Shown: piece by piece, positions 1-63,980 of the stretch | Position numbering within the stretch: position 1 is the first letter of the stretch | How the letters are laid out: every line of letters begins with the position of its first letter | From: an uncultured Gemmatimonadales bacterium | GTDB lineage: Bacteria > Gemmatimonadota > Gemmatimonadetes > Gemmatimonadales > Gemmatimonadaceae | Reading direction: 5' to 3' | Assembly (NCBI GenBank): GCA_963851265.1 | Contig: CAWKNZ010000002.1 | Coordinates: forward strand, 1,440,001 to 1,504,000 | DNA length: 64,000 nt | Notes under the pieces: model-generated | Database searches by the model: none | The model's input: the letters and a program-made list of their open reading frames with translations, nothing else | What the model was told of the DNA's origin: nothing | Made by a program: the position numbers and the translations under genes

Positions 1-2028
1 GTAGCCACCGCCGAGGTCGGCGAGGAACGCGCGGCCGGAGCTGCGCGCCTTGACTGTCAGCTTCTTGTCGAAGAGCTGGTCGGGAAGTCCGTCGAGGAAG
101 CCCGACGGGCGGCCCTGCATCTTCTCGCCGTTCCGCAGGCGCTGTTCGGCGTGCAGCAGGTACAGCTTCTCTTCGGCGCGCGTGATCCCGACGTAGAACA
201 GGCGGCGCTCCTCCTCGAGCTGCGCGGGGTCGTCGTAGGCGCGCGCGAGGGGAAACAATCCGTCCTCCAGGCCCGTGATGAACACGACGGGGAATTCGAG
301 CCCCTTCGCGTTGTGCATCGTCATGAGCGTGACCGCGTCCGCGTCGGCCGCGAGGGCGTCCACGCCCGCGACGAGCGTGGCCTTCTGGAGGAAGTGGTCG
401 AGCGGCGTGAGGCCGACTTCCCCGCCCTCGTCCGCGACCGTTTCGGCCGCGCCGTCGACGAGGGACTGGACGTTGAGCATGCGGTCCTGCCAGTCGGGGC
501 CCTCGGCCTTGAGGTGGTCGCCGTACTTCGTCGCGGCGACGAGATCCTCGATGAGCTCGGGCACGCTCGCTTCGGGCGCGGCGGCGCGGAGGCGGTCGAC
601 GAGCGTGACGAATTCGGCGAGCGGGGCCCGGGCCGCGGGGCGGAGCTGCGCCTGCACCTCGGCGCGCCGCGCGACGTCGAGCAGCGGCGCGCGCTCGCGC
701 TCGGCGATCTCGGCCAGCAGGTCGAGCGACGTGTCTCCGATGCCGCGCTTCGGGACGTTGACGACGCGCCGGAACGCCTCGTTGTCGGCCGGATTGGCGA
801 TCAGCTTGAGGTACGCCATCAGGTCGCGGATCTCGCGGCGGTCGTAGAAGCGGACTGCGCCCACGAGACGGTACGGCATCCCCCGGCGGCGCAGCGACTC
901 TTCGAGCGACCGGCTCTGCGAGTTGGTGCGGTACAGGACCGCGAAGTGCCGCAGCACGCGCCCCTCTCCGGCGCGGCGCGCCGCGATCTCCTCCACCACG
1001 AAGTCGGCCTCGTCGCGGTCGTCGAGCGCGCCGACGAGCGACACGCGCTCGCCCGCGCCGCGGGTCGCGCGGAGGGTCTTGCCCCGGCGCGACGCGTTCG
1101 CGGCGATGACCGTGTTCGCGAGGTCGAGGACGTTCGGCGTCGAGCGATAATTCTCCTCGAGCTTCACCACCGCGGCGTTCGGAAACGTCTTCTCGAAGTC
1201 GAGGATGTTGCGCACGTCCGCACCGCGCCACCCGTAGATCGACTGGTCGTCGTCGCCCACGACCATCACGTTCCCGTGCTCGCCGCCCATCAGCCGGACG
1301 AACTCGAACTGCGCGTGGTTCGTGTCCTGGTACTCGTCGACGAGCACGTAGCGGAACCGCTCGCGGTAGTTGGCGAGCACCTGCGCGTGCTCGCGCAGGA
1401 TCTGCACCGGGAGCACGAGCAGGTCGTCGAACGTCACCGCGTTGGACTCGCGGAGCGCCGGCTCGAAGTCGAGGTAGAGCTTGGCGACCGTTCGCGTGAA
1501 CGGGTCGCCCGCGAGCTCCGCGTACTCGCGGGGCGGCACGAGCGCGTTCTTCGCGTCCGAGATGGCCGACAGCACCGCCTTCGGCGCGACTTCCTTGACC
1601 CCGATCTTGTGGCGCTCGAACAGCCGCTTCAGTGCGCCTAACGCGTCGTCCTCGTCGTAGATCGTGAAGTTGGGCGTGCGGCCGACGAGGTGCGCGTGCT
1701 GGCGCAGCAGTCGCGCGCCGATCGCGTGGAACGTGCCGACCCACATGCCGCGCGGCTCGAAGCCGAGGAAGCGCGCGATGCGGTCGCGCATCTCGCCCGC
1801 GGCCTTGTTGGTGAAGGTGACCGCGAGAATGCGCGCCGGGTCGACGCCGTGCTCCTGCACGAGTCGCGCGATGCGCGTCGTGAGCACGCGCGTCTTGCCC
1901 GAGCCCGCACCGGCGAGCACGAGCGCGGGTCCGTCGACGTGGAGGACGGCCTCGCGCTGGGCGGGGTTGAGGGTCGCGAGCGGGTCGGCCTGCGCGAACC
2001 GGGACGTGCTGGGGATGGGGTGCGGCAT
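1..2028 (-). CDS. pcrA: UvrD/PcrA-family ATP-dependent DNA helicase (3' end runs off the window start)
   Basis: Manual translation of the minus strand from ATG at 2028: MPHPIPSTSRFAQADPLATLNPAQREAVLHVDGPALVLAGAGSGKTRVLTTRIA...ILAVTFTNKAA...LVDEYQDTN...VGDDDQSIYGWRGA...LMTMHNAKGLEF...EERRLFYVGITRAE. These are the SF1 helicase motifs. Absent from the ORF track because there is no stop inside the window. Confidence 0.93.
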   Translation of the reverse strand, partial: MPHPIPSTSRFAQADPLATLNPAQREAVLHVDGPALVLAGAGSGKTRVLTTRIARLVQEHGVDPARILAVTFTNKAAGEMRDRIARFLGFEPRGMWVGTFHAIGARLLRQHAHLVGRTPNFTIYDEDDALGALKRLFERHKIGVKEVAPKAVLSAISDAKNALVPPREYAELAGDPFTRTVAKLYLDFEPALRESNAVTFDDLLVLPVQILREHAQVLANYRERFRYVLVDEYQDTNHAQFEFVRLMGGEHGNVMVVGDDDQSIYGWRGADVRNILDFEKTFPNAAVVKLEENYRSTPNVLDLANTVIAANASRRGKTLRATRGAGERVSLVGALDDRDEADFVVEEIAARRAGEGRVLRHFAVLYRTNSQSRSLEESLRRRGMPYRLVGAVRFYDRREIRDLMAYLKLIANPADNEAFRRVVNVPKRGIGDTSLDLLAEIAERERAPLLDVARRAEVQAQLRPAARAPLAEFVTLVDRLRAAAPEASVPELIEDLVAATKYGDHLKAEGPDWQDRMLNVQSLVDGAAETVADEGGEVGLTPLDHFLQKATLVAGVDALAADADAVTLMTMHNAKGLEFPVVFITGLEDGLFPLARAYDDPAQLEEERRLFYVGITRAEEKLYLLHAEQRLRNGEKMQGRPSGFLDGLPDQLFDKKLTVKARSSGRAFLADLGGGY

Positions 2029-2081
2029 CCCCGACAAGATAGCGCGGGCCGCGGAGGGCCCGCGCGCGGAGCGGCGGCGGG

Positions 2082-6182: not shown

Positions 6183-7376
6183 ATGGCAGGTCTGTACTTC
6201 TACGACGACGCGGTCGCGCGAACGTTCGCGCCATTCGCGTTGACCCGACCGGGCGCGGAACTTCGCGCGGGCGCGCTGATCGTGCGCGAACGATGGGCGC
6301 GCGTGTTCGGGCTGGACGCGGCGGGGTTCCTCTCGTCGCCCGCGCTCGCAGGATTCGAGGAGCCGGGCGCGCCGGGTGCTGCGACGGGCCTACTGCCCGC
6401 GGGCAGCATCGTCATCCACGCGCGGTGCGTGCCCGTGCTCGACGTGCGTGCCGCGCCGAGCGCCGGCGCTTGGCGCTGCAACGGCCGGCTCGCGGCGGTG
6501 CGCCTCGGGAAGCCGGTCCCGGCCGACGCGTTCGCGGACGGCACGCTCACCCTCGACGCGTTCCGGGGCGTCGGCGACGATGCGGAGCTCGCCGGCTGGT
6601 GGCACGACGCGTCGTGGGACTACGTCGGGCACCTCGCCGCACAGCTCGCGCGCGACCTCCCGACGTTAGGCGCGGAGATCGACGCGGTCGAGCACGCGGG
6701 CGTGGTCCTCGGCGCGCACGGCGTGTTCGCCGAGAGAGGCGCCGCGGTCGAGCCGTACACGGTGTTCGACACGTCGGCCGGCCCCGTCGTGGTCCGCCGC
6801 GGCGCGACGGTGCAGGCGTTCACGCGCGTCGTCGGGCCGTGCTACATCGGCGAAGGCTCGGTCGTCACGGCCGACCGCATCAGCGGTTGCGCGATCGGCG
6901 ATCACTGTCGCGTGCACGGCGAGATCAGCGCGTCCGTGCTCGTCGGGCACGCGAACAAGGCGCACGACGGGTTCGTCGGCCACTCCTATCTCGGGCGCTG
7001 GGTCAACCTCGGCGCGGGGACGACGACGAGCAACCTGAAGAACACCTACGGCACGGTCTCGCTCTGGACTCCGGGCGGCGTGCGCGACACCGGGCTGCAG
7101 TTCCTCGGCACGCTGTTCGGCGACCACGCGAAGACGGGCATCGGGCTGACGTTGACGACGGGCACGGTGGTCGGCGCTGGTGCGAACGTCTACGACCGGA
7201 TGCCGCCGAAGCACGTGCCGCCCTTCGCGTGGGGTGGCGGCGCGCCGTACGACACCTACGACGCGGAGCGGTTCGTGCGCGTGGCCGAACGCGCGATGGC
7301 GCGGCGTCAGCGCGCGCTCACCGCGGGAATGCGGGACCTGCTCGCGCGGGCGCACGCGCGTCGCGACGAGGGCTGA
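6183..7376 (+). CDS. GlmU-like putative sugar nucleotidyltransferase with a left-handed beta-helix domain
   Basis: PFALTRP..ELRAG N-terminus; hexapeptide repeats; NKAHDGFVGHSYLGRWVNLGAGTTTSNLKNTY. Confidence 0.8.
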   Translation: MAGLYFYDDAVARTFAPFALTRPGAELRAGALIVRERWARVFGLDAAGFLSSPALAGFEEPGAPGAATGLLPAGSIVIHARCVPVLDVRAAPSAGAWRCNGRLAAVRLGKPVPADAFADGTLTLDAFRGVGDDAELAGWWHDASWDYVGHLAAQLARDLPTLGAEIDAVEHAGVVLGAHGVFAERGAAVEPYTVFDTSAGPVVVRRGATVQAFTRVVGPCYIGEGSVVTADRISGCAIGDHCRVHGEISASVLVGHANKAHDGFVGHSYLGRWVNLGAGTTTSNLKNTYGTVSLWTPGGVRDTGLQFLGTLFGDHAKTGIGLTLTTGTVVGAGANVYDRMPPKHVPPFAWGGGAPYDTYDAERFVRVAERAMARRQRALTAGMRDLLARAHARRDEG

Positions 7377-7377
7377 C

Positions 7378-8193
7378 GTGCGCCTGTGGGTGTTAGGAAC
7401 GGGCAGCCGCGGCAACGCGGTGCTGCTGGAGAGCGACGGCGCGCGCCTCATCGTCGACGCGGGGTTCGGGGTGCGCGCGCTGGCCGAGCGGCTCGCGGCG
7501 GCGCGCGTGCCCCCGGAGTCGATCGCCGCGTGCGTGGTGACGCACGAGCACGCGGACCACGTGAAAGGTGTGCGGCACGCGGCCGCGCGGTGGGGGTGGG
7601 CCGTACACGCGACCACGGGCACGGCCGCGGCATGCGCGGGCGTGCGCGCGGCGGGCGCGACGACGTTCGCCGCGGGTGCGACGTTCCGCGTCGGCCCGTT
7701 CGCCGTCGAGACGGTCGCGACCCCGCACGATGCGGCCGAGAGCATTGCGGTGACTGTGACGACGGACGCCGGTGCGCGCGCTGGCGTGTGCTACGACCTC
7801 GGTCACGCTTCGGACGCCGTGCGCGCGGCGCTGGCCGACGTCGACCTGCTCGTGCTCGAGGCGAACCACGACGAGGCGATGCTGCGTGCGGGCCCGTATC
7901 CGCCTTCGGTCGCCGACCGTATCGCGGGCCGGTTCGGTCACCTGAGCAACCGCGCGGCGGCCTCGCTGGCGCGGCAGGTCGCCACGCCCGCGCTGCGCCA
8001 CGTGGTGCTGGCGCACCTCAGCGAGTCGTGCAACGAGCCACGCCTCGCGAGTGCGGACGTGGGTGCCGCGCTCGCGCGAACGCGTTTCCGCGGAGCGGTG
8101 ACTCCAGCGCTTCAGGACGTCGTCGCGGGGCCGTTCGTCGCGCACGCGGCGCCGCGCGCTCGCGCCGCTGAGCAGCTCGCGCTCGGGCTATAG
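7378..8193 (+). CDS. MBL-fold metallo-hydrolase (YycJ/WalJ-like)
   Basis: LGTGSRGNA, THEHADH, TPHDA, LEANHD, GHLSN and LAHLS motifs; GTG start at 7378. Confidence 0.85.
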   Translation: MRLWVLGTGSRGNAVLLESDGARLIVDAGFGVRALAERLAAARVPPESIAACVVTHEHADHVKGVRHAAARWGWAVHATTGTAAACAGVRAAGATTFAAGATFRVGPFAVETVATPHDAAESIAVTVTTDAGARAGVCYDLGHASDAVRAALADVDLLVLEANHDEAMLRAGPYPPSVADRIAGRFGHLSNRAAASLARQVATPALRHVVLAHLSESCNEPRLASADVGAALARTRFRGAVTPALQDVVAGPFVAHAAPRARAAEQLALGL

Positions 8194-8391: not shown

Positions 8392-9051
8392 ATGCATGAG
8401 TACCACCGCCTACTCGAGAACAATCGCCGCTGGGCCGCCGACGCCATCGCCGCCGACCCGACCTACTTCTCGTCGATGGCGAGCGGGCAGCAGCCCATGT
8501 TCCTCTACATCGGATGCGCGGACAGCCGGGTCCCGGCCGAGGTGATGACGGGCCTCGGACCCGGCGAACTCTTCGTGCATCGCAACATCGCGAACGTGGT
8601 GCTGCCGAGTGACCTGAGCGCGATGAGCGTGCTGCAATACGCGGTCGACGTGCTCGACGTCAAGCACATCCTCGTGACCGGGCACTACGGCTGCGGCGGT
8701 GTGAAGGCGGGGATGGGCACGGAATCGTACGGCCTGGTCGACCACTGGCTCGGACCGATCCGCAACGTCGTGCGGTGGAACCGCCCCGAGTTGGACGCGA
8801 TCGCGGACGAGCAGGCGCGCTTCGACCGGGTGGTCGAGCTGAACGTGCTGGAACAGATCTACCACCTGAGCGAGACGCCGATCATTCAGCACGCGTGGGC
8901 GCGCGGGAGGCGTCCGATCGTGCACGGGCTCGTCTACGACCTCCGCAAGGGCCTCCTGCGCGAGATCGCCACCAACATCGGCTCGCAGGAAGACGCCGAC
9001 CGTCTGGCGATCAAGCGACTGGCCGGACCGCCGGCGGGCGCGACGCGTTAG
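8392..9051 (+). CDS. can: Beta-class carbonic anhydrase
   Basis: IGCADSRVP, GELFVHRNIAN and GHYGCGGV zinc-ligand motifs; GAGG upstream of the start. Confidence 0.95.
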   Translation: MHEYHRLLENNRRWAADAIAADPTYFSSMASGQQPMFLYIGCADSRVPAEVMTGLGPGELFVHRNIANVVLPSDLSAMSVLQYAVDVLDVKHILVTGHYGCGGVKAGMGTESYGLVDHWLGPIRNVVRWNRPELDAIADEQARFDRVVELNVLEQIYHLSETPIIQHAWARGRRPIVHGLVYDLRKGLLREIATNIGSQEDADRLAIKRLAGPPAGATR

Positions 9052-9068
9052 GCCGCCGCGCGCCGGCC

Positions 9069-9698: not shown

Positions 9699-9764
9699 CG
9701 GGCGAAAGCTCGGCACGCGTTCGCCGCACCGCAACGACGCGCTCGAGGCTCGACACCCCCGGAC

Positions 9765-9809
9765 GCACGACGGCGGGGGCGTCCACTGGACGCCCCCGCC
9801 GTTTCGTGC
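9765..9809 (-). terminator. Strong hairpin downstream of groEL, probable terminator
   Basis: ACGGCGGGGGCGTCCA-C-TGGACGCCCCCGCCGT perfect inverted repeat at 9770-9802, about 30 nt after the groEL stop; no clear U-tract on the minus strand. Confidence 0.7.
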
Positions 9810-9829
9810 TGTCGCGTGACGAGCCGGAC

Positions 9830-11497
<1,668 letters not shown>

Positions 11498-13705: not shown

Positions 13706-13815
13706 GCGAGCGGTAGCGTACGGCAGCGAACGGGGCGGGCGGACACACGAGTGAGACGACGCCCGTGTACGCGCCCGCGCGGACGGGCGGTAAGGTAGCC
13801 CGTTCGGGCGGGCTG

Positions 13816-14982
13816 TCAGCCGGCGACCGCCACCGCGGGGTCGCGGCGCGCGGCCCGGGCGACCGCACGTGCGTAGAACGCTTCGTACTGCGCGACCACC
13901 GTTTCGAGCGAGTACCGCGCGCGCGCGTCGGCGGCTGCCGCGGCGCTCATCATGCGCCAGCGTTCCGGATCGGACAGGATGTGAGCTGCCGCCTCCGCCA
14001 TGCCGTCGACGTCGCCGACCGGGCAGAGCGCGCCCGTCTCGCCGTCGCGGACGACTTCTGGAAGGCCGCCCGTGTCGCTCGCGACCACGGGCACCCCGGA
14101 GGCGAGTGCCTCGAGCGCGGACAGCCCGAACGACTCGCTCTGACTGGGCAGCAGGAACAGGTCGGCCCCCGCGAGCAGGGGCGCGACCGCCTCCAGCTTG
14201 CCGAGGAAGTGCACCGACCGCTCGACGCCCAAGGCGCGCGCTTCCTGCTCCGCGTCCACGCGTTCGGGGCCGTCGCCGACCATGAACAGCACGCTCGGCA
14301 CGCGCTCGGTCACGCGGGCGAACACGCGCACGACGTCGCGCACGCGCTTGACCGCGCGCATGTTGGACACGTGCATCACCACCTTGCGTCCCTTCGGCAC
14401 GAGCCAGGAGAGCGCGGGCGGGTGCGCGGCGCGGTCGTACACGAGCGGGTCCACGAAGTTGGGGATCACCTCGACGGCGCAGCCCGTGCAGCCGAACGTG
14501 GCGATCGTCTCGCGGCGCAGGTACTCCGAGACCGACGTGATCCCGTCGGAGCGCTCGATCGAGAACTTCGTGATCGGGTGGAACGACGGGTCCTGGCCGA
14601 CGATCGTGATGTCGGTGCCGTGCAGCGTCGTGATCACCGAGATGTCGGAGCCCTGCGCGCGGAGCATCTCGCGCGCGATCCACGCGCTCGTCGCGTGCGG
14701 GATGGCGTAGTGGCAGTGGAGCAGGTCGAGCCCCTGCGTGCGCACCACCTCGTGCATCCGCACCGCGAGCGCGAGGTCGTACGGCGGGTATTCGAAGAGC
14801 GGGTAGCGGTTGACCTCGACCTCGTGGAAGAAGATCCGCGGCAGGAAGTTAGGCAGCCGGAACGGCTGCTGGTACGTGATGAAATGCACCTCGTGCCCGC
14901 GCGCGGCGAGCGCGATGCCGAGTTCGGTCGCGACCGCGCCGGAACCGCCGTAGGTCGGGTAACACGTGATGCCGATCTTCAT
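13816..14982 (-). CDS. bshA: N-acetyl-alpha-D-glucosaminyl L-malate synthase (GT4)
   Basis: [51 protein letters not shown]. Confidence 0.92.
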
Positions 14983-15968: not shown

Positions 15969-17803
15969 CGTCGCCCGAATCGCCGCTCGACTTCGTCCCA
16001 TCCCAGGTGCACGATGGTCGCCCGCCCGTGTACGTCGTGGGCGGGCAGCGTCGTGCGCGCGAGCGCGAGGTACAGGGCGCGCATCTCGTCCGCCGCGAGC
16101 TCGTCGCCCGCCTTGATCGCGGCCTTGCACGCGACGGTGGCGGCCAGTCGCTCGTGCCGCGCGTGAGTCGCGGCATGCCGATCTCCGGTGAGCGCGGCGA
16201 GCGAATCACGCAAACATCGCTCGGCGTCGAACCGCGGGTGCGGCGCCGGCACGGCGTGCACGAGCAGCGTGGAGCCGCCGAACGGCTCCGCCGCGTACCC
16301 GAGCCGCTCGAAGCTCGCGCGCGCCGCGTCGAACGCCTCCGCTTCGGCGCCCGTCACGTGCACGGTGAGCGGGAAGAGCAACCGCTGCGACGGCGCGTCG
16401 CCCCGTTCGAGCGCACCGAGGAAGCGCTCGTAGAGCACGCGCTCGTGCGCCGAGTGCTGGTCGATGAGCACGACCCCCTCGTCGCGCTCGAACATGAGGT
16501 ACGTGCGGCGGAGCTGGACGAGGGGGGGAACGACCACGTCGTCGGCCACTCCGGCGCGCATGGCGGGTGCGGCTGGAGCCGCGACGTCCGAAGGCGCGGC
16601 GTCGTCCCACGCGAGCGCGGGCGCCCCGTCGGGGATGCCGGTGTCCGTGCGCGGGTCCACCACGCCCCCCGCGGCCTCGGCCGGAGTGAAGAGCCCGACG
16701 CGCATCGGCGCCGCGGCGGCGAAGGCGGCGCGCTCGTCCGCTGCCGCAGTGGACCCGCCGGCGTCGCCGCGGAGCCCGGTCGTGAACCAGACGCGCCCGC
16801 CGATCCCGCTCGCGCTGTCGAGGGTGCCTAACGCATGCCGCACGGCGCGCAGCACGGCGCCTTCGACGGTCCACCGGTCGTGGAATCGCACCTCGGCCTT
16901 CGCGGGGTGGACGTTCACGTCCACCCCGTCGGCCGGCACCGATAGCTGCAGAAACAACGACGGCCGGAGCCCCGCGGCGAGCGTGCTGCGGTACGCGGCT
17001 TCCGCCGCGCGCAGCAGGCCGACGTCGCGGACGGGCCGTCCGTTGACGCTGACGAAGGTGCGCCGCGGTGAGCGCCCGACGTCGCCCGGGCGCTCGACGA
17101 CGCCGCTCACGGCGACAGCCCCGGTCACGTCGTCGACGTCGAGAAGCACGTCGGGGTAGCGCGGCCCAAAGATGGCGCCGAGGCGGGCGCGGAAGCTCGC
17201 CGCGGCGGGCCAGCTGAGCGCGGGGCGCCCGTCGTGCGTCGCCGACACGCGCACGTCGTGGCGAGCGAGTGCGACGGTGGTGAGCACCTCGCTGATGCCT
17301 CGCCACTCGCCGCGCGCGGAGCGCAGGAATTTCTCGCGCGCGGGTGTGTTGTAGAACAGCCGGGCGACGCTGACCGTCGTGCCGCGCCGGCGGGCGGCCG
17401 CGGCGACCTGCTGCACGGCACCGCCGGTGGCGCGGATGACCGTACCGTCGCCGGACGCGTCGGCCGTGACGAGTTCCAGCTCCGAGACCGAGCAGATTGC
17501 CGGGAGCGCCTCGCCGCGGAACCCGTAGCTCGCGACGCCGACGAGTTCGTCCGCGGAGCGGATTTTCGACGTCGCGTGGCGCGACAGGCACAGCACGGCG
17601 TCGTCGCGCGACATGCCGGCGCCGTCGTCGCTGACGCGCACCAGCGCGCGGCCGCCCTGCTCCACGATCACCTCGACCGCGGTCGCACCGGCGTCGAGCG
17701 CGTTCTCGACGAGTTCCTTCACGACGGACGCCGGTCGCTCGACGACCTCGCCGGCGGCGATCTGGTCGGCGACGGCCGAGGGGAGGACGGCGATGCGCGG
17801 CAC
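15965..17803 (-). CDS. mutL: DNA mismatch repair protein MutL
   Basis: QIAAGEVVERPASVVKELVENALDAG, HATSKI, GFRGEAL, DVNVHPAKAEVRF, DQHSAHER, ACKAAIKAG. Confidence 0.97.
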   Translation of the reverse strand: MPRIAVLPSAVADQIAAGEVVERPASVVKELVENALDAGATAVEVIVEQGGRALVRVSDDGAGMSRDDAVLCLSRHATSKIRSADELVGVASYGFRGEALPAICSVSELELVTADASGDGTVIRATGGAVQQVAAAARRRGTTVSVARLFYNTPAREKFLRSARGEWRGISEVLTTVALARHDVRVSATHDGRPALSWPAAASFRARLGAIFGPRYPDVLLDVDDVTGAVAVSGVVERPGDVGRSPRRTFVSVNGRPVRDVGLLRAAEAAYRSTLAAGLRPSLFLQLSVPADGVDVNVHPAKAEVRFHDRWTVEGAVLRAVRHALGTLDSASGIGGRVWFTTGLRGDAGGSTAAADERAAFAAAAPMRVGLFTPAEAAGGVVDPRTDTGIPDGAPALAWDDAAPSDVAAPAAPAMRAGVADDVVVPPLVQLRRTYLMFERDEGVVLIDQHSAHERVLYERFLGALERGDAPSQRLLFPLTVHVTGAEAEAFDAARASFERLGYAAEPFGGSTLLVHAVPAPHPRFDAERCLRDSLAALTGDRHAATHARHERLAATVACKAAIKAGDELAADEMRALYLALARTTLPAHDVHGRATIVHLGWDEVERRFGRR

Positions 17804-29865: not shown

Positions 29866-29892
29866 CGCGTCGCGCCTAACGCGTCGCGCGAC

Positions 29893-38455: not shown

Positions 38456-41065
<2,610 letters not shown>

Positions 41066-41337: not shown

Positions 41338-42150
41338 CTACGCGCGACCGCCCTGAGCGCCGCCCGCGAGCGCGGCACCTTCCCACACCTCGAATGCCCG
41401 GAGCGGGCGCCCGTCCGTCAGGTGCTCGCGAAGGAACTCGCGCAGCAACCGCTGGTGCGCCCGCACCGTCGCGCCGTCCATGGGTACGATCTCGCGCACC
41501 AGCGTCGCGCCGGCGATGTCGTGCGGGTCCGCGCCGAGCCACACGCGGAGCGACGCGCGCGCGGCGACCGGCAGCGTGCGCGTGGTCCCGCCGAGTCGCG
41601 CGCAGCCGTCGCAGAGCGCACCGCCCAACGGCTGGCTGAACCGCGCCGCCGCGTCGGCGTCCAGCTCGCGCCCGCACCGGGCGCAGGCGTCGAGCGACGG
41701 CGTGAAGCCTAACGCGCCGACCAACGCCCACGCGCCGGCGAGCCCGGCCTCGCGCGCGAGTCCCGCCGGCACGGTCTCGATCGCGTCGAGTGCGGCGACG
41801 AGCGCGTCGTACCACGCCGGATCGGGCTCGTCGCGCCCGAAGCGCAGCACGAGTTCCGCGATCACCGCCGCGGTCGTGAACCGATCGAGGTCATGGCCGA
41901 GCGCGACCCGCGCACGCGTCACGTCGAACGCGGCGAGCGTGTGCAGGTCGCGGCCGGACTTCGCGTAGTACGCCGCCTCGCCCTGGGCAAACAGATCGAC
42001 GGCCGACCCGAAGCGGCGTTGTGTCTTACGCGCGCCCTTCGCCATCACCGACACGACGCCGTGCGCGCGCGTCGCGAGCCGCAGGATGCGCGAACTCTCG
42101 GAGTAGAGCTGCGCGTGTAGCACGACGGCGTCGGTCGCGGCAAGGGCCAT
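41338..42150 (-). CDS. recO: DNA repair protein RecO
   Basis: TDAVVL...YSESSRIL..AT..HG, AKGARK..RRF, CARCG...GALCDGC zinc finger. Confidence 0.9.
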   Translation of the reverse strand: MALAATDAVVLHAQLYSESSRILRLATRAHGVVSVMAKGARKTQRRFGSAVDLFAQGEAAYYAKSGRDLHTLAAFDVTRARVALGHDLDRFTTAAVIAELVLRFGRDEPDPAWYDALVAALDAIETVPAGLAREAGLAGAWALVGALGFTPSLDACARCGRELDADAAARFSQPLGGALCDGCARLGGTTRTLPVAARASLRVWLGADPHDIAGATLVREIVPMDGATVRAHQRLLREFLREHLTDGRPLRAFEVWEGAALAGGAQGGRA

Positions 42151-48051: not shown

Positions 48052-49824
48052 TCAACCGGCGGCGTTCGTCAATCCCGAAGCGCCGGTGCTGCGCCCGAGT
48101 TCGGCGTCGAGCGCGGCGTGAAGGATCACCTCGGCTTCGCGCGCCGTGGCGGAGTTCAGCGCCCGCTCCGCGGCGGCGGTCGCGCGGGAGGCATGCACGC
48201 CGCGCACGATGCGCTTCACCACCGCGACGTTGCGCGGTCCCACCGAGAGCTGCCGCAGGCCGAGCCCGAGCAGCGCGTAGGCCATGAGGGGCTGAGACGC
48301 CATCTCACCGCACACGCACACGTCGAGGCCGTGGTCCGCCCCGACCTGCACGACGTGGCGGAGGAGGCGGAGTACGGAAGGGTGCAGCGGCGTGAACCGC
48401 GGCGCGAGCTGCGCATTCCCGCGGTCCACGGCGAGCGTGTACTGCACGAGGTCGTTGGTGCCGATCGAGAAGAACGCGACCTCGCCTACGAACGACTCGG
48501 CGGCCAACGCGGCGGCCGGCGTCTCGATCATGACGCCGAGCGGCACGTCGTCGCGAAACGACGCGCCGCGCGCGCGCAGCTCCGCGGCGGCTTCGCCCAT
48601 GAGCGCCCGTGCGGCGCGCACCTCGTCCACGCTCACCACGAGCGGGAGCATGATGCGCACGTCCCCGTGGGTCGCGGCGCGCAGGAGCGCGCGCAGCTGG
48701 CCCTTGAACAGTTCGGGCTGGTCGAGACACATCCGGATCGCGCGCCAGCCCAGGAACGGGTTGGGCTCGGCCGGGAATCCGCCGACCGGCAGCTTGTCGC
48801 CGCCGATGTCGAAGGTCCGGATCACCACCGGGCGGCCGCGGAACGCGTCGACCACGCGCGCGTAGGCCCGGTACTGCTCGTCCTCGTCGGGCATCGTCGC
48901 CCGACCGACGACGAGGAATTCGGTGCGCAGCAGCCCGACCCCGTCCGCCCCACTCGTCGCCGCCGCGTCGGCCTCCTCCGGCAGATCGACGTTGGCGCGC
49001 AGCGTCACGCACACGTCGTCGCGCGTGACCGCGTCCAGCGCGGAGAGCTGGCGCAACTCGGCCGTCTCCTGCACTTCGAGCTGCGCGCGCGCCGCATACG
49101 CCGCGAGTTCCGTCGCGTCGGGGTCGAGCGCGAGCGTGCCCGCCGCCCCGTCGAGCACCGCGCGCTCGCCACCGCGGAGCCGCGACGTCGCGTCGCGCAG
49201 GCCGACCACGGCGGGCAGGCCTAACGACCGCGCGAGGATCGCGATGTGCGACGTGTTCGTCCCGGCGTCGGTGGCGATCGCGGAGATCGCCTCGCGGTCG
49301 AGCTGGACCGTCAGCGACGGCGTCAGGTCGTGCGTGACGAGGATCGCCCCCGCGCCCTTGGGCACCGAGATCGGGTCGTAGTCGGGCAGGTCGAGCAGCA
49401 GCGATAGGAGGCGGATCTGCACGTCCGTCAGGTCGCCGACGCGCTCGCGGAGCATCGCGTGCGGATGCTTCGCGAACTGCTGGCGCCACTCGAGCATCGC
49501 CAGGTCGACCGCCTTCTCGGCGCCGAGGTTCTGGCGCACCAGCGTCTCCATCTGGTCGACGAGCGCCTCGTCGCGGAGGATCGAGAGCTGCACGTCGAAG
49601 ATCGCGGCCTCGTCGGGCCCGGCCTGGCGCTCGGCGCGCGCGCGGACGAGCTCGAGCCGGTCGGCCGCGCCGGCGATCGCGGCGCGGAGCCGCGCCAACT
49701 CCGCGGGGATCATGTCGTCGGCGACGATCCGCTGGGGCACGTCGGGCACCTCCCAGCGCAGGAGGTGCACGGGCCCCACGACGATCCCCGGCGACGCGGC
49801 GATCCCCGCGAGTTGCAGCCGCAC
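48052..49824 (-). CDS. ptsI: PTS enzyme I
   Basis: GIAASPG, TSHIAILARS (phospho-His), GVGLLRTEF, DIGGDK, EPNPFLGWR, MIETP, SIGTNDLVQY, CGEMA. Confidence 0.96.
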   Translation of the reverse strand: MRLQLAGIAASPGIVVGPVHLLRWEVPDVPQRIVADDMIPAELARLRAAIAGAADRLELVRARAERQAGPDEAAIFDVQLSILRDEALVDQMETLVRQNLGAEKAVDLAMLEWRQQFAKHPHAMLRERVGDLTDVQIRLLSLLLDLPDYDPISVPKGAGAILVTHDLTPSLTVQLDREAISAIATDAGTNTSHIAILARSLGLPAVVGLRDATSRLRGGERAVLDGAAGTLALDPDATELAAYAARAQLEVQETAELRQLSALDAVTRDDVCVTLRANVDLPEEADAAATSGADGVGLLRTEFLVVGRATMPDEDEQYRAYARVVDAFRGRPVVIRTFDIGGDKLPVGGFPAEPNPFLGWRAIRMCLDQPELFKGQLRALLRAATHGDVRIMLPLVVSVDEVRAARALMGEAAAELRARGASFRDDVPLGVMIETPAAALAAESFVGEVAFFSIGTNDLVQYTLAVDRGNAQLAPRFTPLHPSVLRLLRHVVQVGADHGLDVCVCGEMASQPLMAYALLGLGLRQLSVGPRNVAVVKRIVRGVHASRATAAAERALNSATAREAEVILHAALDAELGRSTGASGLTNAAG

Positions 49825-50148: not shown

Positions 50149-50946
50149 TCAGCGAAGGAGGCCGTAGAGCGTAAAGATGGCGAGGAGCGTGAGCGCGAGG
50201 CGCCATCCGTCGAGGCGGCCGTGCAACCGTGCGAGCACGACGGCCGCGACGACGATCACGACGAGCGCCGCGCCGAGCAGCGTACGCCCCGGCCCGATCG
50301 CGCGGTCGAGGGCGAGCGGCAGCGCCGCCCCCCCGACCAGCGCGGCGGCCTGCGACAGCCGTTCGGGCCCCTGGCGGAACAGCGGATGCGCGAGCCCCTG
50401 CGCCACCCGCAGCCCGCGCGCGAGGCCGGTCCGCAGCCCCCACACACGGAGCGCGACGTGCCCGGCGTTGTACAGGAGCAGGAAGCCGCCCACGGTCACG
50501 AGCGGCGACGCGCCGGCGCCGAACAGCAGCAGCCCGACGGCCGAGCAGAACGGCAGCCACGCCGCCCAGACCAGCCGGTCGCCGACGCTGCCTAACGGGC
50601 CGCAGAGCGCGGTGCGGAACCGCTCGATCCGCACGGCCGGCTCGCCGTCGAGCTCCGCGCGCGCGAGGGCGCCCACGGCGAGCGCGGCGAGGTACGGGTG
50701 CGCGTTGAAATACGCGCTCTCGCGCGCGAGCGCCTCCCGGTACGCGGCGCCCCCTCGCCCGCCGGGCAGCAGCGCGAGTGCGGGCTCGACGGCGTAGCCG
50801 ACGCCGGTCCCGAGCAGCAGCTCGTAGTTCCACGACGCCTGGATCGCGAACAGCCGGACGAGCATCAGCGCCCGGGTCGCGAACGGCACCACCGCGCCGG
50901 ACGTCGTGCCGGGCGCCGCGCCGAGCGGCAGCGCGGCGCCGCTCAC
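50149..50946 (-). CDS. PTS mannose/fructose/sorbose family IID component
   Basis: IQASWNYE, YFNAHPY, GPLGSVGD.L.W, LYN. Confidence 0.88.
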   Translation of the reverse strand: MSGAALPLGAAPGTTSGAVVPFATRALMLVRLFAIQASWNYELLLGTGVGYAVEPALALLPGGRGGAAYREALARESAYFNAHPYLAALAVGALARAELDGEPAVRIERFRTALCGPLGSVGDRLVWAAWLPFCSAVGLLLFGAGASPLVTVGGFLLLYNAGHVALRVWGLRTGLARGLRVAQGLAHPLFRQGPERLSQAAALVGGAALPLALDRAIGPGRTLLGAALVVIVVAAVVLARLHGRLDGWRLALTLLAIFTLYGLLR

Positions 50947-57162: not shown

Positions 57163-57186
57163 GCTCGAACTCCTGTAGCGGGTGCG

Positions 57187-57822
57187 TTAGGCCGCGCGGG
57201 CCGCGAGGTACGGCGCCACGAGGCGCTGCACGTACTTCCCGACGACGTCGCCCTCGACGTGCACGGGGTCACCCGGCGCGCGGAGCCCGAGCGTGGTGTG
57301 GCGGTGCGTGTACTCGATGATCGATAGCTGCAACACGCCGGGCGCGGGCAGCGCGTTGACCGTGAGACTCACGCCGTCGACCGTCACGGAGCCGTGCGGG
57401 ACCATGAGCGCGTCGAGCCCCGCGGGGAGCGCGACGTCGATGAGCCACGCGTCGCCGCGTCGCACGACGCGTTCGACGGTGCCGACGCCGTCCACGTGCC
57501 CCTGCACGAGGTGGCCGCCGAGTCGGTCGCCCGCGCGCAGCGCGCGCTCGAGATTGACCCGGCGCCCCTCGCGCCACGCGCCGAGCGCGGTGCGGTCGAG
57601 CGTCGTCACGACCGCGGCCACGGTGAACCAGCTGCGCGCGCCGTCTCCGTCGGCGCCGGCGATCGGCCCCGAACTCCTCACGGTGAGACACACGCCGTCG
57701 CACGCGACGCTCTCGCCGTCGGCGAGGGCCTCGTACGCGGTGTGGATGCGGAACTCGCGCCCCGCCTCCGTATCGTCTACGGAGGCGATGGTGCCGACGT
57801 CGTCGACGAGACCGGTGAACAT
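57187..57822 (-). CDS. ribE: Riboflavin synthase (alpha chain)
   Basis: MFTGLV, GESVACDGVCLTV, VNLERAL, GGHLVQGHVDG, GSVTVDGVSLTV. Confidence 0.96.
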   Translation of the reverse strand: MFTGLVDDVGTIASVDDTEAGREFRIHTAYEALADGESVACDGVCLTVRSSGPIAGADGDGARSWFTVAAVVTTLDRTALGAWREGRRVNLERALRAGDRLGGHLVQGHVDGVGTVERVVRRGDAWLIDVALPAGLDALMVPHGSVTVDGVSLTVNALPAPGVLQLSIIEYTHRHTTLGLRAPGDPVHVEGDVVGKYVQRLVAPYLAARAA

Positions 57823-57852
57823 GGTTCGGTTCGGGCCCGTCGCGCGGGCGTG

Positions 57853-58995
57853 TTAGGGACTGGGTGCGAGCGGGTCGGAACCGTCGGCCATGCGAGTGGG
57901 GACGGCGTGCACGGCATACGCGGTCATGACATCGTCGCCGAGCACGCGCCGGCGGACCACCGTCAGCCGGTGCGCGCCGCGCGCCGCGCGCGGCGGCGCA
58001 CTCGCGAACGCGCCGAGCGCGCCGGCCCCGAGTACGACCGGCGCCTGAAAGGTAACCAGGCGGTCCACGAGATCCGCGCCCCAGAGCGCGCCGGCGATCC
58101 CGGCTCCCCCTTCCACCAGGAGCGCGCGTACCCCGCCGGCACGCAGTGCCGCGCACGCGTCCGCGAGCGTGCCGGCGACGATCACGCTGACGCCCTCGCG
58201 TTCGAGGGCGACGCGGCGTTCGAGCGGCGCGTCGGCCGAACACACGATCGCGGTGCGCACCTCGCGCGCGCTCCGCACGAGTGCGGCGGCGAGGGGAAGA
58301 CGCGCGGCGCGGTCGAAGACCACGCGCATTGGTGCCACGCGCGGCGCGGGCACGTCGCGCACCGTGAGCGCCGGGTCGTCGGCGAGCGCGGTTCCGACGC
58401 CGACCGCGATGGCGTCGCTCCCCGCACGCATCCGGTGCACGGCGCGACGCGACTCCGCCCCGGTGAGCCACGCCGGCGTGTGCGTGTGGTCCGCGATCGC
58501 GCCGTCGATCGAGGTTGCGAGCTTGAGCGTGATCCAGGGCCGCCCGCCGCCGGTGACGTCGTGAAAGAACGCGGCGTTGAGCTCGACCGCCGCGTGGGCG
58601 AGGACGCCGACGTCGACCGCCACGCCCGCCGCGCGCAGCCGGTCGGCGCCCCCGGAGGCAATCGCGTGCGGGTCGGCCGCCGCCACCACCACGCGCCCGA
58701 CGCCCGCCGCGAGCAGCGCATCCACACACGGCGGCGTGCGTCCCCAGTGGTTGCACGGTTCGAGCGTCACGTAGGCGGTCGCGCCACGCGCCGCGGAGCC
58801 AGCCGCGCGCAGCGCGGCAACCTCGGCGTGCGGACCGCCGTACTCCGCGTGCCACCCCTCGCCGACGACCAGACCGTCGCGCACGATCAGCGCGCCGACC
58901 AGCGGGTTGGGCGCGACGCGGCCCCACCCGCGCCGCGCGAGCTGCAGCGCGCGGCGCATGTGGCGCTCGTCCTCCGGGGCGCGCAGGTCGGTCAC
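57853..58995 (-). CDS. ribD: Riboflavin biosynthesis deaminase/reductase
   Basis: PNPLVGA, HAE, VTLEPCNHWGRTPPC, KLATSIDG, DDPALTVR, LVEGG. Confidence 0.96.
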   Translation of the reverse strand: MTDLRAPEDERHMRRALQLARRGWGRVAPNPLVGALIVRDGLVVGEGWHAEYGGPHAEVAALRAAGSAARGATAYVTLEPCNHWGRTPPCVDALLAAGVGRVVVAAADPHAIASGGADRLRAAGVAVDVGVLAHAAVELNAAFFHDVTGGGRPWITLKLATSIDGAIADHTHTPAWLTGAESRRAVHRMRAGSDAIAVGVGTALADDPALTVRDVPAPRVAPMRVVFDRAARLPLAAALVRSAREVRTAIVCSADAPLERRVALEREGVSVIVAGTLADACAALRAGGVRALLVEGGAGIAGALWGADLVDRLVTFQAPVVLGAGALGAFASAPPRAARGAHRLTVVRRRVLGDDVMTAYAVHAVPTRMADGSDPLAPSP

Positions 58996-59008: not shown

Positions 59009-60070
59009 TCACCGGCCCACGCGCACCCCGACCGAGACGTAGGTGTACGCGTCGGTCGGCGTACGGCCCGAGAACCCGTTGTAGGTCGGGACGTCGCCTC
59101 CCCCGGAGACCCGCCCGACCTCCGCGACGAGCTGCGCGATCCCGCCCGCGGGGAGGCTGGCCGCCCCGTAGACGTTCGTGCGGGTCACGCGTTGCGCGTA
59201 CGCCTGCGAGAAGCTGGACACGCCGGTGCCGTACCCCGGGACGTTCACGGCGACGCTCCCGGCGATCGTCGCGCGCGCGTCGTACCGGTCCTGCCCCACG
59301 CCCGCGCTGAGTCCGAGCAGCGAAACGCGCTGGTTGGCGGCGAGCCGCCACGAGTCGGTCGACACGCGCGCCCCCGACACGCCGATCGTACCGCCGTCGG
59401 TCGTCGACGCGAGAATCGACGTTTGCGGCAGCTCGCGGCGCAGGTACGTCACGCCGATTCCGGGCACGAATCGCGACCGCTCGAGCAGCCCGAGTCGAGC
59501 GCCGTAGCCGATCTGCAGCGCGCTCCCGGTCCGCGTCACGCGCACCTGCCCCGAGGAGAACGACGGGACGTAGGCGCCGCTGAGCAGCAGGTCGAGTCCG
59601 CCAACCCGCGTGAGGCCGACCGGGACGCCCCCGAACAGCCCGATTCCTGCGTCGGCGGTCGGCAGTGCGAGGGTTTGCGAGTTGACCTGGAAGTTGGTGC
59701 GCTGCGCGCCGGTGTAGCTGAGCTGCACGTTTCCGAGGTCCGGAAGTCGGCCGCCGCCGACCACGTTGGCGCGGACACCGACGCCGAAGTGCCCGAGTCC
59801 GCCTAACGTTCCGCCGCGTCCGAGCTCCGCACTCCCCCCGCCGAGGAGCGCGCCGAGCTGCGGGGCGAGGTAGTTGAAGACGTCGATCGACTTCTGACAG
59901 GCGTCCTGCTGCACCAGCGCCGCGGCGCCGGCGGTGGTCGTCGGGAGGGTCGCGCCGCAGCGCGGGTCGACTCCGCCTGTCTGCGCGGCGGCGCGGTGTG
60001 GGACGGCGAACGCGGCGGCCAGCGCGGTTGCCCATGCGGTGGGCGGAACGGCGAACGAGTAGCGATGCAT
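59009..60070 (-). CDS. Secreted, probable outer-membrane beta-barrel hypothetical protein
   Basis: Signal peptide (..RAAA-Q), Cys pair, alternating amphipathic beta strands, C-terminal YTYVSVGVRVGR. Confidence 0.65.
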   Translation of the reverse strand: MHRYSFAVPPTAWATALAAAFAVPHRAAAQTGGVDPRCGATLPTTTAGAAALVQQDACQKSIDVFNYLAPQLGALLGGGSAELGRGGTLGGLGHFGVGVRANVVGGGRLPDLGNVQLSYTGAQRTNFQVNSQTLALPTADAGIGLFGGVPVGLTRVGGLDLLLSGAYVPSFSSGQVRVTRTGSALQIGYGARLGLLERSRFVPGIGVTYLRRELPQTSILASTTDGGTIGVSGARVSTDSWRLAANQRVSLLGLSAGVGQDRYDARATIAGSVAVNVPGYGTGVSSFSQAYAQRVTRTNVYGAASLPAGGIAQLVAEVGRVSGGGDVPTYNGFSGRTPTDAYTYVSVGVRVGR

Positions 60071-62188: not shown

Positions 62189-62228
62189 GGCGTTGGAGAG
62201 GGGGTGCCGTGCTGGGGCGACCGACGGA

Positions 62229-63980
62229 TCACATCCGGTCCGGCGCCGAGATGCCGAGCAAGGTGAGCGCGTTGCGCAGCACGACCTGCGTCGCCCGCGC
62301 CAGCGCGAGCCGCGCGGCCGTGAGCGCGGGCTCCTCGCCTAACACGTGGTGCTTGTGGTACCACGCGTGCGCGAGGTTCGCGGTCTCGAGCAGGTACGCG
62401 GCGACCCGGTGCGGCTCGAGCGACTCCGCCGCCTGCCCGATCACGCGCGGGAAGTCGACGAGCTTGGTGATCAACTCCTGCTCCGCGGGCTCAGCGAGCA
62501 GACCGTACTCCACGGGCGTCGCCAGGATGCCGTCCACGTCGAGCCCCTCGAGGCCGGCGTTGCGGAAGATGCCCGACATCCGCGCGTGCGCCATCTGCAC
62601 GCGGTAGACCGGGTTCTCGTCGCTCTCGCTCCGCGCGAGGTCGACGTCGAACACGAGGTGCGAGTCCCCCTTCCGCATGAGGTAGAAGTAGCGCACCGCG
62701 TCGCGCCCGACCCAGTCGATCAGGTCGCGCACCGTGACGTAGCTGCCCGCGCGCTTGGAGATCTTCACCTCCTCCCCGCCGCGCATCACGGTGACCATCT
62801 GGTGCAGCACGTACTCGGGGTAGCCGGGCGGGATCCCGGCGCCTAACGCCTGCAGTCCCGCGCGCACGCGCGCCGTCGTCCCGTGGTGGTCGCTCCCCTG
62901 CACGTTCACCGCGCGCGCGTAGCCGCGCTCCCACTTGGTCACGTGGTACGCGACGTCCGGGACGAAGTACGTGTACTCGCCCCCCTTCCCGGCGCTACGC
63001 CGCATCACCCGGTCCTTGTCGTCGCCGAACGCCGTGGTCCGCAGGAACAGCGCGCCGTCCTGCTCGTACGTCGCCCCCGCCTCGACGAGCGCGTGCACCG
63101 TGCGGTCCACGCGCCCGTCGGCGTAGAGCGAACTCTCGAGGTAGTAGGTGTCGAACGCGACGCCGAACGCGCGCAGGTCGAGGTCCTGCTCGGCGCGGAG
63201 CGCGGCCACCGCGAACCGGCGCATCTGCTCGAACACGTGCCCCTGCTCGGGCCTCCGCCCCTCCGCGATCCGAATCGCGCCCTCGTACAGCACCTCGCGG
63301 TCCGGCATCCCGTGCTCGGCGACGAACGCGTCCGCGATCTCGGCGACGTACTCCCCGTGGTAGCCGCCTTCCGGCACCTCGGCGGTCGCGCCCGCGCGTT
63401 GCGCGACGCGCGCCCACACGGTCTTGGCCAGGTTCTCGATCTGCGCGCCGGCGTCGTTGTAGTAGAACTCACGGCTGACGTCCCACCCCGACCACGCGAG
63501 CAGCGCGCTGACCGCGTCGCCGAGCGCGGCCTGGCGCCCGTGCCCGACGTGCAGTGGCCCGGTCGGGTTCGCGGACACGAACTCCACGACGACCCGCTCG
63601 CCGGCCCACGCGGCGTCTCGGCCGTAGTTCGCGCCTTGCGCGAGGATGGGCGCGATGCCGCGCGCGACCAGCGCCGGGTCGAGGCGAAAGTTGAGGAACC
63701 CGGCGCCCGCAATCTCGACCGCGCGTACGCCGGCCGCCGCGAGGTCGAGCTGCCCGACGATCGCGTCGGCGATCTCGCGTGGCTTCCGACGCAGCGAGCG
63801 CGCGAGCGTCATCGCGAGATTCGTCGTCCAGTCACCGAACGCGGGATCACGCGGGCGTTCGAGGACGACGTCGACCGAGTCGTCCGCGCCGATCGCGCGC
63901 GCGGCGGCGACGAGCGCCGACCGGATCGCGTCGGGGCCGGCGAGCGGCGAGGCCGCGCCGTCGGCGTCGCGCACGGTCAC
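62229..63980 (-). CDS. argS: Arginine--tRNA ligase
   Basis: EFVSANPTGPLHVGHGR, YYNDAG.Q, FGDDKDRV, KISKRAG, NPVY..Q.AHAR, LGISAPDRM. Confidence 0.97.
   Translation of the reverse strand: MTVRDADGAASPLAGPDAIRSALVAAARAIGADDSVDVVLERPRDPAFGDWTTNLAMTLARSLRRKPREIADAIVGQLDLAAAGVRAVEIAGAGFLNFRLDPALVARGIAPILAQGANYGRDAAWAGERVVVEFVSANPTGPLHVGHGRQAALGDAVSALLAWSGWDVSREFYYNDAGAQIENLAKTVWARVAQRAGATAEVPEGGYHGEYVAEIADAFVAEHGMPDREVLYEGAIRIAEGRRPEQGHVFEQMRRFAVAALRAEQDLDLRAFGVAFDTYYLESSLYADGRVDRTVHALVEAGATYEQDGALFLRTTAFGDDKDRVMRRSAGKGGEYTYFVPDVAYHVTKWERGYARAVNVQGSDHHGTTARVRAGLQALGAGIPPGYPEYVLHQMVTVMRGGEEVKISKRAGSYVTVRDLIDWVGRDAVRYFYLMRKGDSHLVFDVDLARSESDENPVYRVQMAHARMSGIFRNAGLEGLDVDGILATPVEYGLLAEPAEQELITKLVDFPRVIGQAAESLEPHRVAAYLLETANLAHAWYHKHHVLGEEPALTAARLALARATQVVLRNALTLLGISAPDRM

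Follow-up and report, generated by a model that had tools for sequence, protein, structure and literature searches.

The 64-kb window analyzed here lies in the genome of an uncultured Gemmatimonadales bacterium of the Gemmatimonadaceae (G000; 4.60 Mb, 73% GC, 12 contigs numbered C1, C2 and so on; other G numbers denote relatives) and carries dispersed copies of a short word, (C)GTTAGGC. The host is a soil bacterium, and its AhcY has its nearest named relatives in the Gemmatimonadales, which places it in the Gemmatimonadota. GTTAGG occurs 21 times in the window, 6 times on the plus and 15 times on the minus strand. Nineteen of these are GTTAGGC and 17 are CGTTAGGC, and all 21 TTAGG pentamers of the window are preceded by G. 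A preliminary description of the window had reported at least 21 copies, 19 of them GTTAGGC. Our recount agrees in number and in coordinates, with its plus-strand positions having started one base before the G. Its division into 16 in-frame TTA-GGN readings, one antisense CCT-AAC, three copies over stop codons and one intergenic copy after rpsT was confirmed by our own gene calls, made for G000 with its own codon model (3747 genes) and with gene names checked by Pfam (Table 1). Pfam backs the names UvrD, MutL, carbonic anhydrase, RibE, RibD, ArgRS, ClpB, RecO, PtsI, EIID, PyrB, PyrC and S20, while the genes earlier called bshA and batA are identified only as a family-4 glycosyltransferase and a VWA protein.

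Table 1. Copies of the word and its variants in the 64-kb window
Positions	Strand	Word and reading	Gene or context
1636..1642	-	GTTAGGC, in frame GCG-TTA-GGC	UvrD-type helicase
6665..6671	+	GTTAGGC, ACG-TTA-GGC	sugar nucleotidyltransferase-like gene
7392..7398	+	variant GTTAGGA, GTG-TTA-GGA	metallo-beta-lactamase-fold gene
9047..9053	+	GTTAGGC across TAG stop	carbonic anhydrase
14848..14854	+	GTTAGGC antisense, read CTG-CCT-AAC	family-4 glycosyltransferase
16826..16832	-	GTTAGGC, GCG-TTA-GGC	mutL
22392..22398	-	GTTAGGC, GCG-TTA-GGC	VWA-domain gene
23885..23891	-	GTTAGGC, CCG-TTA-GGC	gene without Pfam match
29874..29880	-	GTTAGGC, intergenic	directly after rpsT
31852..31858	-	GTTAGGC, ACG-TTA-GGC	pyrC
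33216..33222	-	GTTAGGC, TCG-TTA-GGC	pyrB
38759..38765	-	GTTAGGC, CCG-TTA-GGC	clpB
39656..39662	-	GTTAGGC, ACG-TTA-GGC	clpB
41707..41713	-	GTTAGGC, GCG-TTA-GGC	recO
49219..49225	-	GTTAGGC, TCG-TTA-GGC	ptsI
50590..50596	-	GTTAGGC, CCG-TTA-GGC	PTS IID component
57186..57192	+	GTTAGGC antisense across TAA stop (GCC-TAA-C)	riboflavin synthase
57852..57858	+	variant GTTAGGG antisense across TAA stop	ribD
59801..59807	-	GTTAGGC, ACG-TTA-GGC	gene without Pfam match
62337..62343	-	GTTAGGC, GTG-TTA-GGC	argS
62841..62847	-	GTTAGGC, GCG-TTA-GGC	argS

Abundance and spacing of the word

GTTAGGC is the top 7-mer of G000, with 1762 copies on both strands compared to 96 expected under an order-2 and 127 under an order-3 Markov model, an overrepresentation of about 18-fold. 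C is preferred over T at position -1, so that the informative word is (C>T)GTTAGGC, and no informative flank was seen in G000 outside these 7-8 bases. A weak variant, GTTGGGC, is also raised (CGTTGGGC, 726 compared to 329 expected). The in-frame reading G-TTA-GGC takes up 994 of the 1280 TTA codons (78%), where codon shuffling predicts 34. An excess over chance and a concentration of TTA in this context, both proposed in the preliminary description, are therefore borne out genome-wide. TTA is not the rarest codon, as had been assumed, but the twelfth rarest, because the word itself supplies most of its uses. GC-rich control loci, mostly from Actinomycetota, contain zero or one copy each, one of them three. 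One public sequencing run contained 31% of the words.

The word is written in every frame that the encoded protein permits. Counts exceed the codon-shuffled expectation for CCT-AAC (200 compared to 16), CTA-AC (72 compared to 8) and GTT-AGG-C (23 compared to 0.8). Intergenic copies number 275, and 193 run over a gene end. At G-Leu-GGC positions, where the leucine codon could be TTA (free sites), it is TTA in 981 of 5600 cases, compared to 38 of 28587 control G-Leu-G(non-G) sites. Stop codons follow the same pattern: in the context GCC-stop-C, 108 of 231 genes terminate with TAA, compared to 3 of 76 in GCC-stop-other, and in the context NGT-stop-GC the stop is TAG in 77 of 84 genes. With C at -1, the sense frame TTA-GGC is used at 16-36% of free sites and the antisense CCT-AAC at 13-30%, which is alike, and dipeptide frequencies are barely shifted (Leu-Gly 1.04, Leu-Thr 1.00, Pro-Asn 1.17, Val-Arg 1.09). 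Together, the similar use of sense and antisense frames, stops and spacers with almost unchanged dipeptides indicates a force on duplex DNA that works through silent positions. This agrees with the earlier view of a DNA-level signal rather than a codon-pair effect, as does the conservation of sites between species described below. The signal is not confined to housekeeping genes, as was first thought, since 11-20% of free sites are used on each of the 12 contigs; use climbs from 7% to 23% with the GC content at third codon positions (GC3) of the gene.

A skew relative to replication, raised earlier as a check, was sought on contig C2 (630 copies). The terminus was taken at a single-copy dif-like site at about C2:1368950 (1.369 Mb), near a gene-strand switch; the pattern used to call this site is one that we take to be that of dif. 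By raw count, 354 of the 630 copies are on the leading strand. Per free site, use is 241/1365 on the leading and 140/805 on the lagging strand, with 45/260 and 36/177 in the antisense frame, and there is thus no replichore polarity.

Copies of the word exclude one another at short range. The fraction of free sites with TTA depends on the distance to the nearest other copy, rising from 2/354 below 100 bp to 18/390 at 100-200 bp, 103/760 at 200-400 bp, 173/981 at 400-700 bp and 181/744 at 700-1000 bp. It stays at 23-24% over 700-2500 bp and is 31/316 beyond 4 kb. Six neighbor distances are below 200 bp, compared to 49 ± 7 in an availability-matched null. The exclusion is equal in all four orientation classes and on both sides, is weaker for TAA stops (8/32 within 250 bp and 100/199 beyond), and was seen in every word-rich relative with enough sites. 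With the baseline fixed, the fit gives a decay length of 120 bp and, for C at -1, a full advantage of the word of about 5.9 log units; freeing the baseline lengthens the decay to 180 bp. A Monte Carlo simulation with one saturating 120-bp kernel gave 989 copies compared to 981 observed and reproduced the distance profile, its parameters having been fitted to the same data so that this is not an independent test. The simulation without interaction gave a flat profile.

A GC halo around copies

Synonymous codons ending in A or T are depleted around the word. Within genes of G000, their frequency in successive bins from below 30 bp to 350-500 bp from a copy is 0.67, 0.70, 0.82, 0.87, 0.96, 0.99 and 1.04 of expectation, with recovery by about 300 bp. 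Five sets of control words are much flatter (lowest first bin 0.84, n = 223); one of the five, unused G-CTC-GGC sites, gives 0.96-1.01. This halo is symmetric about the word and is found at TTA sites, other frames, stops and intergenic copies (logit -0.82, -0.55, -0.53 and -0.66; log-likelihood gain 379), with a fitted decay length of about 260 bp.

Four simple causes were rejected. Weak copies of the word do not account for the halo, which is independent of likeness to the word and equally strong for A/T alleles unlike it. Mosaic imports from AT-richer donors do not either: the pair excess of A/T-ending codons is 1.04 at 2-5 codons and about 1.0 beyond 10, and there is no patchiness of such codons far from the word. 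Gene or position effects are rejected by the within-gene controls, by the presence of the halo at all site classes, and by the lack of a halo where 25 word-poor loci have the orthologous positions (values within 60 bp, 1.01 and 1.12). The effect is also specific in kind. Transitions are depleted near the word (within-gene odds ratios 0.55, 0.72 and 0.78), while the transversion CGG/AGG is unaffected (1.00, 0.75-1.34); ATC/ATA gives 0.70 with a wide interval (0.37-1.33). As C/G divergence near the word is not lower either (0.300 compared to 0.284), there is no general drop in mutation rate.

Among relatives, amplitudes were fitted to 60-450 kb of sequence each. The halo, -0.67 ± 0.03 in G000, is also present in G001 (-0.51 ± 0.12), G004 (-0.84 ± 0.13), G240 with G297 (-0.78 ± 0.06) and G165 (-0.84 ± 0.20), and weaker in G211 (-0.35 ± 0.11) and the chromosome of G304 (-0.24 ± 0.13). 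G002 (0.00 ± 0.09) and G292 with G193 (-0.05 ± 0.12) show none, though they keep the word. Four separate genera therefore have a real halo, while other lineages keep the word without it. G002 (C1) retains both the word and its spacing, and its A/T-ending codons are twice as frequent as in congeners, as would be seen after loss of the GC-biasing step.

Distribution among relatives and the search for a reader

A genome was called word-rich when its CGTTAGGC count, made by hand, was at least twice that of the reversed control word. By this measure 68 of 250 family genomes are word-rich, about a quarter, with copies in ordinary genes numbering from hundreds to thousands; the unpublished genomes G011, G451 and G469 are present only as word-poor rows in such denominators. 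The trait is bimodal and mostly genus-wide. Genus g48 is split, with G240, G297, G410, G427 and G446 rich and G293, G462, G477 and G491 poor. Counts are also raised in a few genomes of two sister families (G036, G040 and G038; genus g76), and none of 102 genomes outside the order exceeds the control word. The same spelling occurs in separate lineages, and in a rough tree of 17 genomes the rich lineages are scattered among the poor ones (a sparsely filled 20-gene matrix, from which the other 24 of 41 genomes were dropped for too few columns). An excess of AGCAGGA in G293 was considered as a second dispersed word and proved to be an intergenic tandem repeat. At locus L091 (G293:C166), three such intergenic elements lie within 20 kb, at 9730-9900, 13780-13930 and 17590-17770; they consist of AGCAGGA/AGCAGAA heptamers in tandem, followed downstream by a tandem array in inverted orientation.

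Word sites are kept between species more often than TTG codons, in line with a conservation check named in the preliminary description. Sites of G000 are shared at 21/33, 20/33 and 22/31 in its congeners G001, G004 and G002, compared to 11-18% for TTG codons, and at 5/19 in G304, with which the TTG range becomes 6-18%. G240 and G297, at 81% amino-acid identity, share 49 of 64 word sites. Their word-poor congener G293 has 0 of 51 such sites, with ordinary CTC/CTG codons and no decayed remnants. In word-poor relatives, Leu-Gly is kept equally at word and unused sites.

Candidates for a protein that reads the word were sought family by family in single-family searches. Several uptake genes are intact in G000, namely comEC, comEA, dprA, type IV pilins and a basic pilin ending in GRxR. 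The last is a minor pilin (G000:C7:452369-452773, L259:2372-2773, minus strand) with a net charge of +12, the C-terminus SRLGRVR, no Pfam match at 1e-8 and counterparts in 67 of 71 genomes. GRxR is the DNA-binding motif of gammaproteobacterial FimT, according to the available text of PMC8897410. Neither the GRxR pilin nor other type IV pilins, comEC and comEA (5 of 5 genomes each) or dprA (56/59) separate rich from poor genomes. The same holds for the IntI N-terminal domain (matches in 59 of 68 genomes), other tyrosine recombinases (5 genomes), XerC/XerD sequences (5 genomes each) and dif arms, and for UDG, NucS and MutS (5 genomes each). ParB occurs in 58 of 59 genomes, with no additional ParB-like protein in the word-rich ones. 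TopIB (47/72), Ku (56/72), Vsr (16/72) and an AddAB-type nuclease (3/5) do not track the word, and a C5 methyltransferase was matched in one of five genomes, the word-poor one. Neighborhoods of comEC, comEA, dprA and parB hold no gene specific to word-rich genomes. As side observations, Ku has no match in genus g1 (G000, G001, G003, G004), the AddAB/RecB-type nuclease has none in word-rich G240 and G012, and CTAG is the most avoided tetramer of G000 (1108 compared to 6043 expected), although the Vsr search gave no match.

Proposed molecular drive, rival explanations and significance

Our best explanation, to which we give an even chance, is that (C)GTTAGGC is a strand-independent word spreading by molecular drive. 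A putative protein would favor DNA carrying the word as donor in short-tract homologous exchange, with GC-biased conversion alongside. Three observations underlie this reading. The word is written on both strands wherever protein sequence permits, and it persists from one species to another. Whatever their orientation, two copies hardly ever arise less than about 180 bp apart. Synonymous C-to-T and G-to-A states are depleted symmetrically over about 250 bp in G000, G001, G004, G240 with G297 and G165, more weakly in G211, and not in G012, G002 or G292 with G193. The lengths of exclusion and halo may both reflect the tract exchanged together with the word. A second copy close by would be carried on this tract and gain nothing, and G:T mismatches in the heteroduplex would be repaired to G:C in lineages with that bias, leaving the halo as a by-product. 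Exclusion everywhere, with a halo in some lineages only, fits a word that wins as donor under lineage-dependent GC-biased repair. Recognition could occur at DNA uptake, as for the DNA uptake sequence (DUS) and the uptake signal sequence (USS), or at a recombination step, as proposed for the highly iterated palindrome HIP1.

Among known systems the word is most like an uptake sequence. As with DUS and USS, it is non-palindromic and non-polar, occurs about once per 0.7-3 kb on both strands of coding and non-coding DNA, and is scarce in low-GC3, likely acquired genes, and competence genes are present. For H. influenzae, the part of PMC7811141 available to us states that uptake is not increased by a further USS less than 100 bp away and that the width of uptake peaks follows fragment length; the lack of benefit from a close second copy resembles the exclusion pattern of our word. 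The same text holds that drive alone can build USS-like distributions and that uptake sequences are scarce in newly acquired DNA.

A more specific version seems possible, though we hold it only tentatively. Here the word would belong to a third class of bacterial self-tags, free of methylation, spelled like the crossover core of integrons, and would be a genome-wide hot spot for short-tract conversion in scattered Gemmatimonadales lineages, leaving motif-centered peaks of GC-biased conversion. At PRDM9 hotspot motifs, GC-biased conversion gives a symmetric gain in GC over a few hundred bases, and the motifs erode. The symmetric, motif-centered gain in GC is shared with our word, which differs in accumulating and in being bacterial.

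Several findings weigh against the drive explanation or set the word apart from uptake sequences, of which two tested features fail. First, the word forms almost no terminator pairs, and 17 of 1750 neighbor distances in G000 are below 100 bp, compared to 23% of USS lying within 100 bp of another (PMC7811141, same part). Second, uptake sequences double their encoded tripeptides, as stated in the accessible portion of PMC2817400, while our word does not enrich Leu-Gly. It also has only 7-8 informative bases, is written in the rarest codons and has one spelling across lineages. No dialect or other dispersed word appeared among the top 7-mers of 20-kb loci from 40 relatives. None of the 16 candidate families or proteins tracks the word, in searches that did not cover N6/N4 methyltransferases, phosphorothioate genes or histone folds. 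The genes comEC, comEA, dprA and the GRxR pilin are found equally in word-poor genomes, and no specific ComP-like reader was found, the pilin alignment having no residue that discriminates 33 word-rich from 18 word-poor pilins. The fitted lengths are unequal, at 120-180 bp for exclusion and about 260 bp for the halo. The halo itself has a coding-strand bias, is somewhat stronger for T- than for A-ending codons (0.67 compared to 0.77) and is deepest at CpG (0.57-0.65), which plain conversion does not predict. G012 (-0.06 ± 0.05), the set richest in the word, has no halo, the very GC-rich plasmids of the cultured Gemmatirosa kalamazoonensis KBS708 have a weak one (-0.11 ± 0.07), and the prediction that its depth tracks GC3 failed across relatives. 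Finally, the word is missing around each of the three parAB loci of G000, in gaps at C1:182876-227962 (45 kb), C8:248137-269544 (21 kb) and C6:76505-91676 (15 kb). None of 2000 random placements reproduced this, and the 45-kb gap alone has P = 0.0015. These gaps suggest action on the chromosome inside the cell.

Such an intracellular protein under direct selection is the chief rival, and we regard it as possible but doubtful. The word would anchor a nucleoid organizer or a repair protein whose benefit saturates within a footprint of 200-300 bp, copies would be selected directly, and in bound or wrapped DNA cytosines would be deaminated less or G:T-to-G:C repair would be greater. This is consistent with a word that is non-polar, orientation-independent and self-excluding, and with a halo that is transition-specific and stronger on the coding strand. 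The parAB gaps also fit, as though DNA coated by ParB were inaccessible to the reader. The dnaA/dnaN region (C1:2107-17073) is a further word-free gap of 15 kb. The par gap is clear in G001 and partial or mild in G004, G240 and G297, but neither G012 nor G304 has it at the chromosomal parB. Because G012, G002 and G292 with G193 keep the word without the halo, protection cannot be its purpose everywhere. No additional ParB-like protein occurs in word-rich genomes, and TopIB, Ku, XerC/XerD, Vsr, NucS and UDG do not track the word. Compared with the sites of nucleoid proteins (parS, matS, NBS, SBS, XDS), the word is excluded from parAB regions in G000 and G001 but not from the terminus. A terminus-centered block of co-oriented core genes has been described for Gemmatimonadota (PMC11237797, in the part available), and G000 matches this architecture; word use in its core-gene region near the terminus, 15-21%, is not higher than the 10-23% per 100 kb elsewhere.

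Two observations concern the par loci themselves. Canonical parS, with up to 2 mismatches, was found nowhere in the G000 genome nor near parB in G001 and G004, and stands beside parB in G012, G240, G297, G165 and G304; genus g1 may have a different parS. A parA-parB-rep-like cassette at G000:C8:254381-260526 encodes an unfamiliar Rep-like protein and is likely the origin of a secondary replicon.

An unlikely alternative is that the reader is an integron integrase or a derivative, with strand exchange at shared cores and short branch migration converting neighbors and spreading the core. The attC core (R' and R'' boxes) has the consensus GTTRRRY/RYYYAAC, of which a literature check confirmed the AAC cleavage triplet only; in attC sites of cassette arrays, the core and its inverse pair to form a bottom-strand hairpin, as a handful of attC-like sites in G000 do. 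The attC-like hairpins of G000 are bounded by GCCTAAC...GTTAGGC, letter for letter the word and with the same C or T at -1. One set belongs to an integron at G000:C6:900-6900 and follows its intI gene, which is disrupted close to the C-terminus by an inserted element that carries a serine-recombinase-like gene. Four more attC-like sites lie at G000:C10:188900-203800, and one cassette site is almost the same on C6 and C10. Arrays of such pairs occur in word-poor G027 and G029, in G027 beside an integrase N-terminal match, and the recurrence of one spelling in separate lineages is what a fixed specificity would give. Against this, only 8 pairs spaced within the searched 44-144 bp exist among the 1762 copies, and none among the 21 of the window, so nearly all copies are lone half-sites in genes without a hairpin partner. 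The integrase also does not track abundance: strong IntI-type matches occur in word-poor G006, G068, G095, G293 and others, and none in word-rich G001 (97% complete), G165 (99%), G008 and G131, while the intI of G000 is itself interrupted. Several mutational routes to the word alter GTT. For insertion into genomes IntI requires no more than GWT, and such insertions disrupt genes, as stated in the available part of bioRxiv 10.1101/2022.09.11.507474. The identity of word and attC core may reflect history or coincidence.

A methylation-directed mismatch-repair ratchet that creates and spaces the word, as Elhai proposed for HIP1, is very improbable and already largely refuted. The word resembles HIP1 (GCGATCGC) in being hyper-abundant, conserved at silent sites and patchy within a phylum-level group, and MutS and MutL are present. 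It differs in that it is not palindromic, follows a spacing rule of about 200 bp and has no reported methylation. PacBio sequencing detects 5-methylcytosine poorly, so that its data by themselves leave room for this and rarer marks, and no C5 methyltransferase match was found in G000, G012 or G240 (92-96% complete). The PacBio methylome of KBS708 contains only RGATCY, ATGCAC and CCAGN7TCA (PMC3974934), though the plasmids of this strain are word-rich, with 353 copies in 450 kb (nine 50-kb stretches of two large plasmids of 2.15 Mb). The model does predict saturation with distance, but at about 1000 nt rather than 200 in the part of PMC4390886 available, and C/G divergence does not drop around the word. 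HIP1 has a periodicity of tens of kb in the accessible text of PMC5861425, HIP1 is linked to transformation in the abstracts of PMC13756078 and bioRxiv 10.1101/2024.09.10.611283, and the latter, as far as available, reports that it raises transformation when homologous and methylated.

Least probable of all is a polar chromosome signal (Chi, KOPS or a primase site) or a translational device (bldA-like TTA control or a codon pair): TTA falls mostly in the word, tRNA-Leu(UAA) is present in G000 and the raw C2 count leans to the leading strand, but there is no polarity per free site, exclusion and halo ignore orientation, and antisense frames, stops and spacers are used as well. The word shares with Chi and KOPS a short non-palindromic form, about a thousand copies and, in the best reading, a tie to recombination, but lacks their replichore skew, acts symmetrically and occurs without an AddAB/RecB-type nuclease match in two of the richest genomes, G240 and G012. 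A polar signal is refuted for C2 of G000, provided that the placement of the terminus by dif-like site and gene-strand switch holds. The word is thus most like an uptake sequence and is not HIP1, Chi, KOPS or attC; of the analogies first offered, Chi/KOPS and HIP1-type methylation fall away, uptake-sequence-like drive becomes the best reading and a nucleoid-protein site its rival.

No description of the word and no motif report for Gemmatimonadota was found in our literature search, as the preliminary description had supposed, with most subscription papers and supplements outside its reach; the available part of PMC11237797, on the architecture of the phylum, mentions no motif. Nor was a paper found that links GC-biased gene conversion to uptake sequences. 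The short-range exclusion and the GC halo are new results of this analysis.

Few hyper-abundant genome words are known (DUS, USS, HIP1, Chi and KOPS), and (C)GTTAGGC fails a defining test of each. Its exclusion over 200 bp and its halo give the underlying process a length scale and a mutational signature, and it can be tested, since a cultured type strain has it and the phylum is a major one in soil. A genuine connection with the attC core would matter for the interaction of integrons with the chromosome and for the origin of cassettes. If the halo reflects biased conversion, about 1700 marked sites per genome, absent in some congeners, would allow the long-disputed relation of recombination to GC content in bacteria to be examined one site at a time. 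If the short-tract hot-spot reading is true, the word would be a bacterial counterpart of the PRDM9 footprint with a motif that raises its own frequency, and would allow a direct, site-resolved test of whether recombination raises GC.

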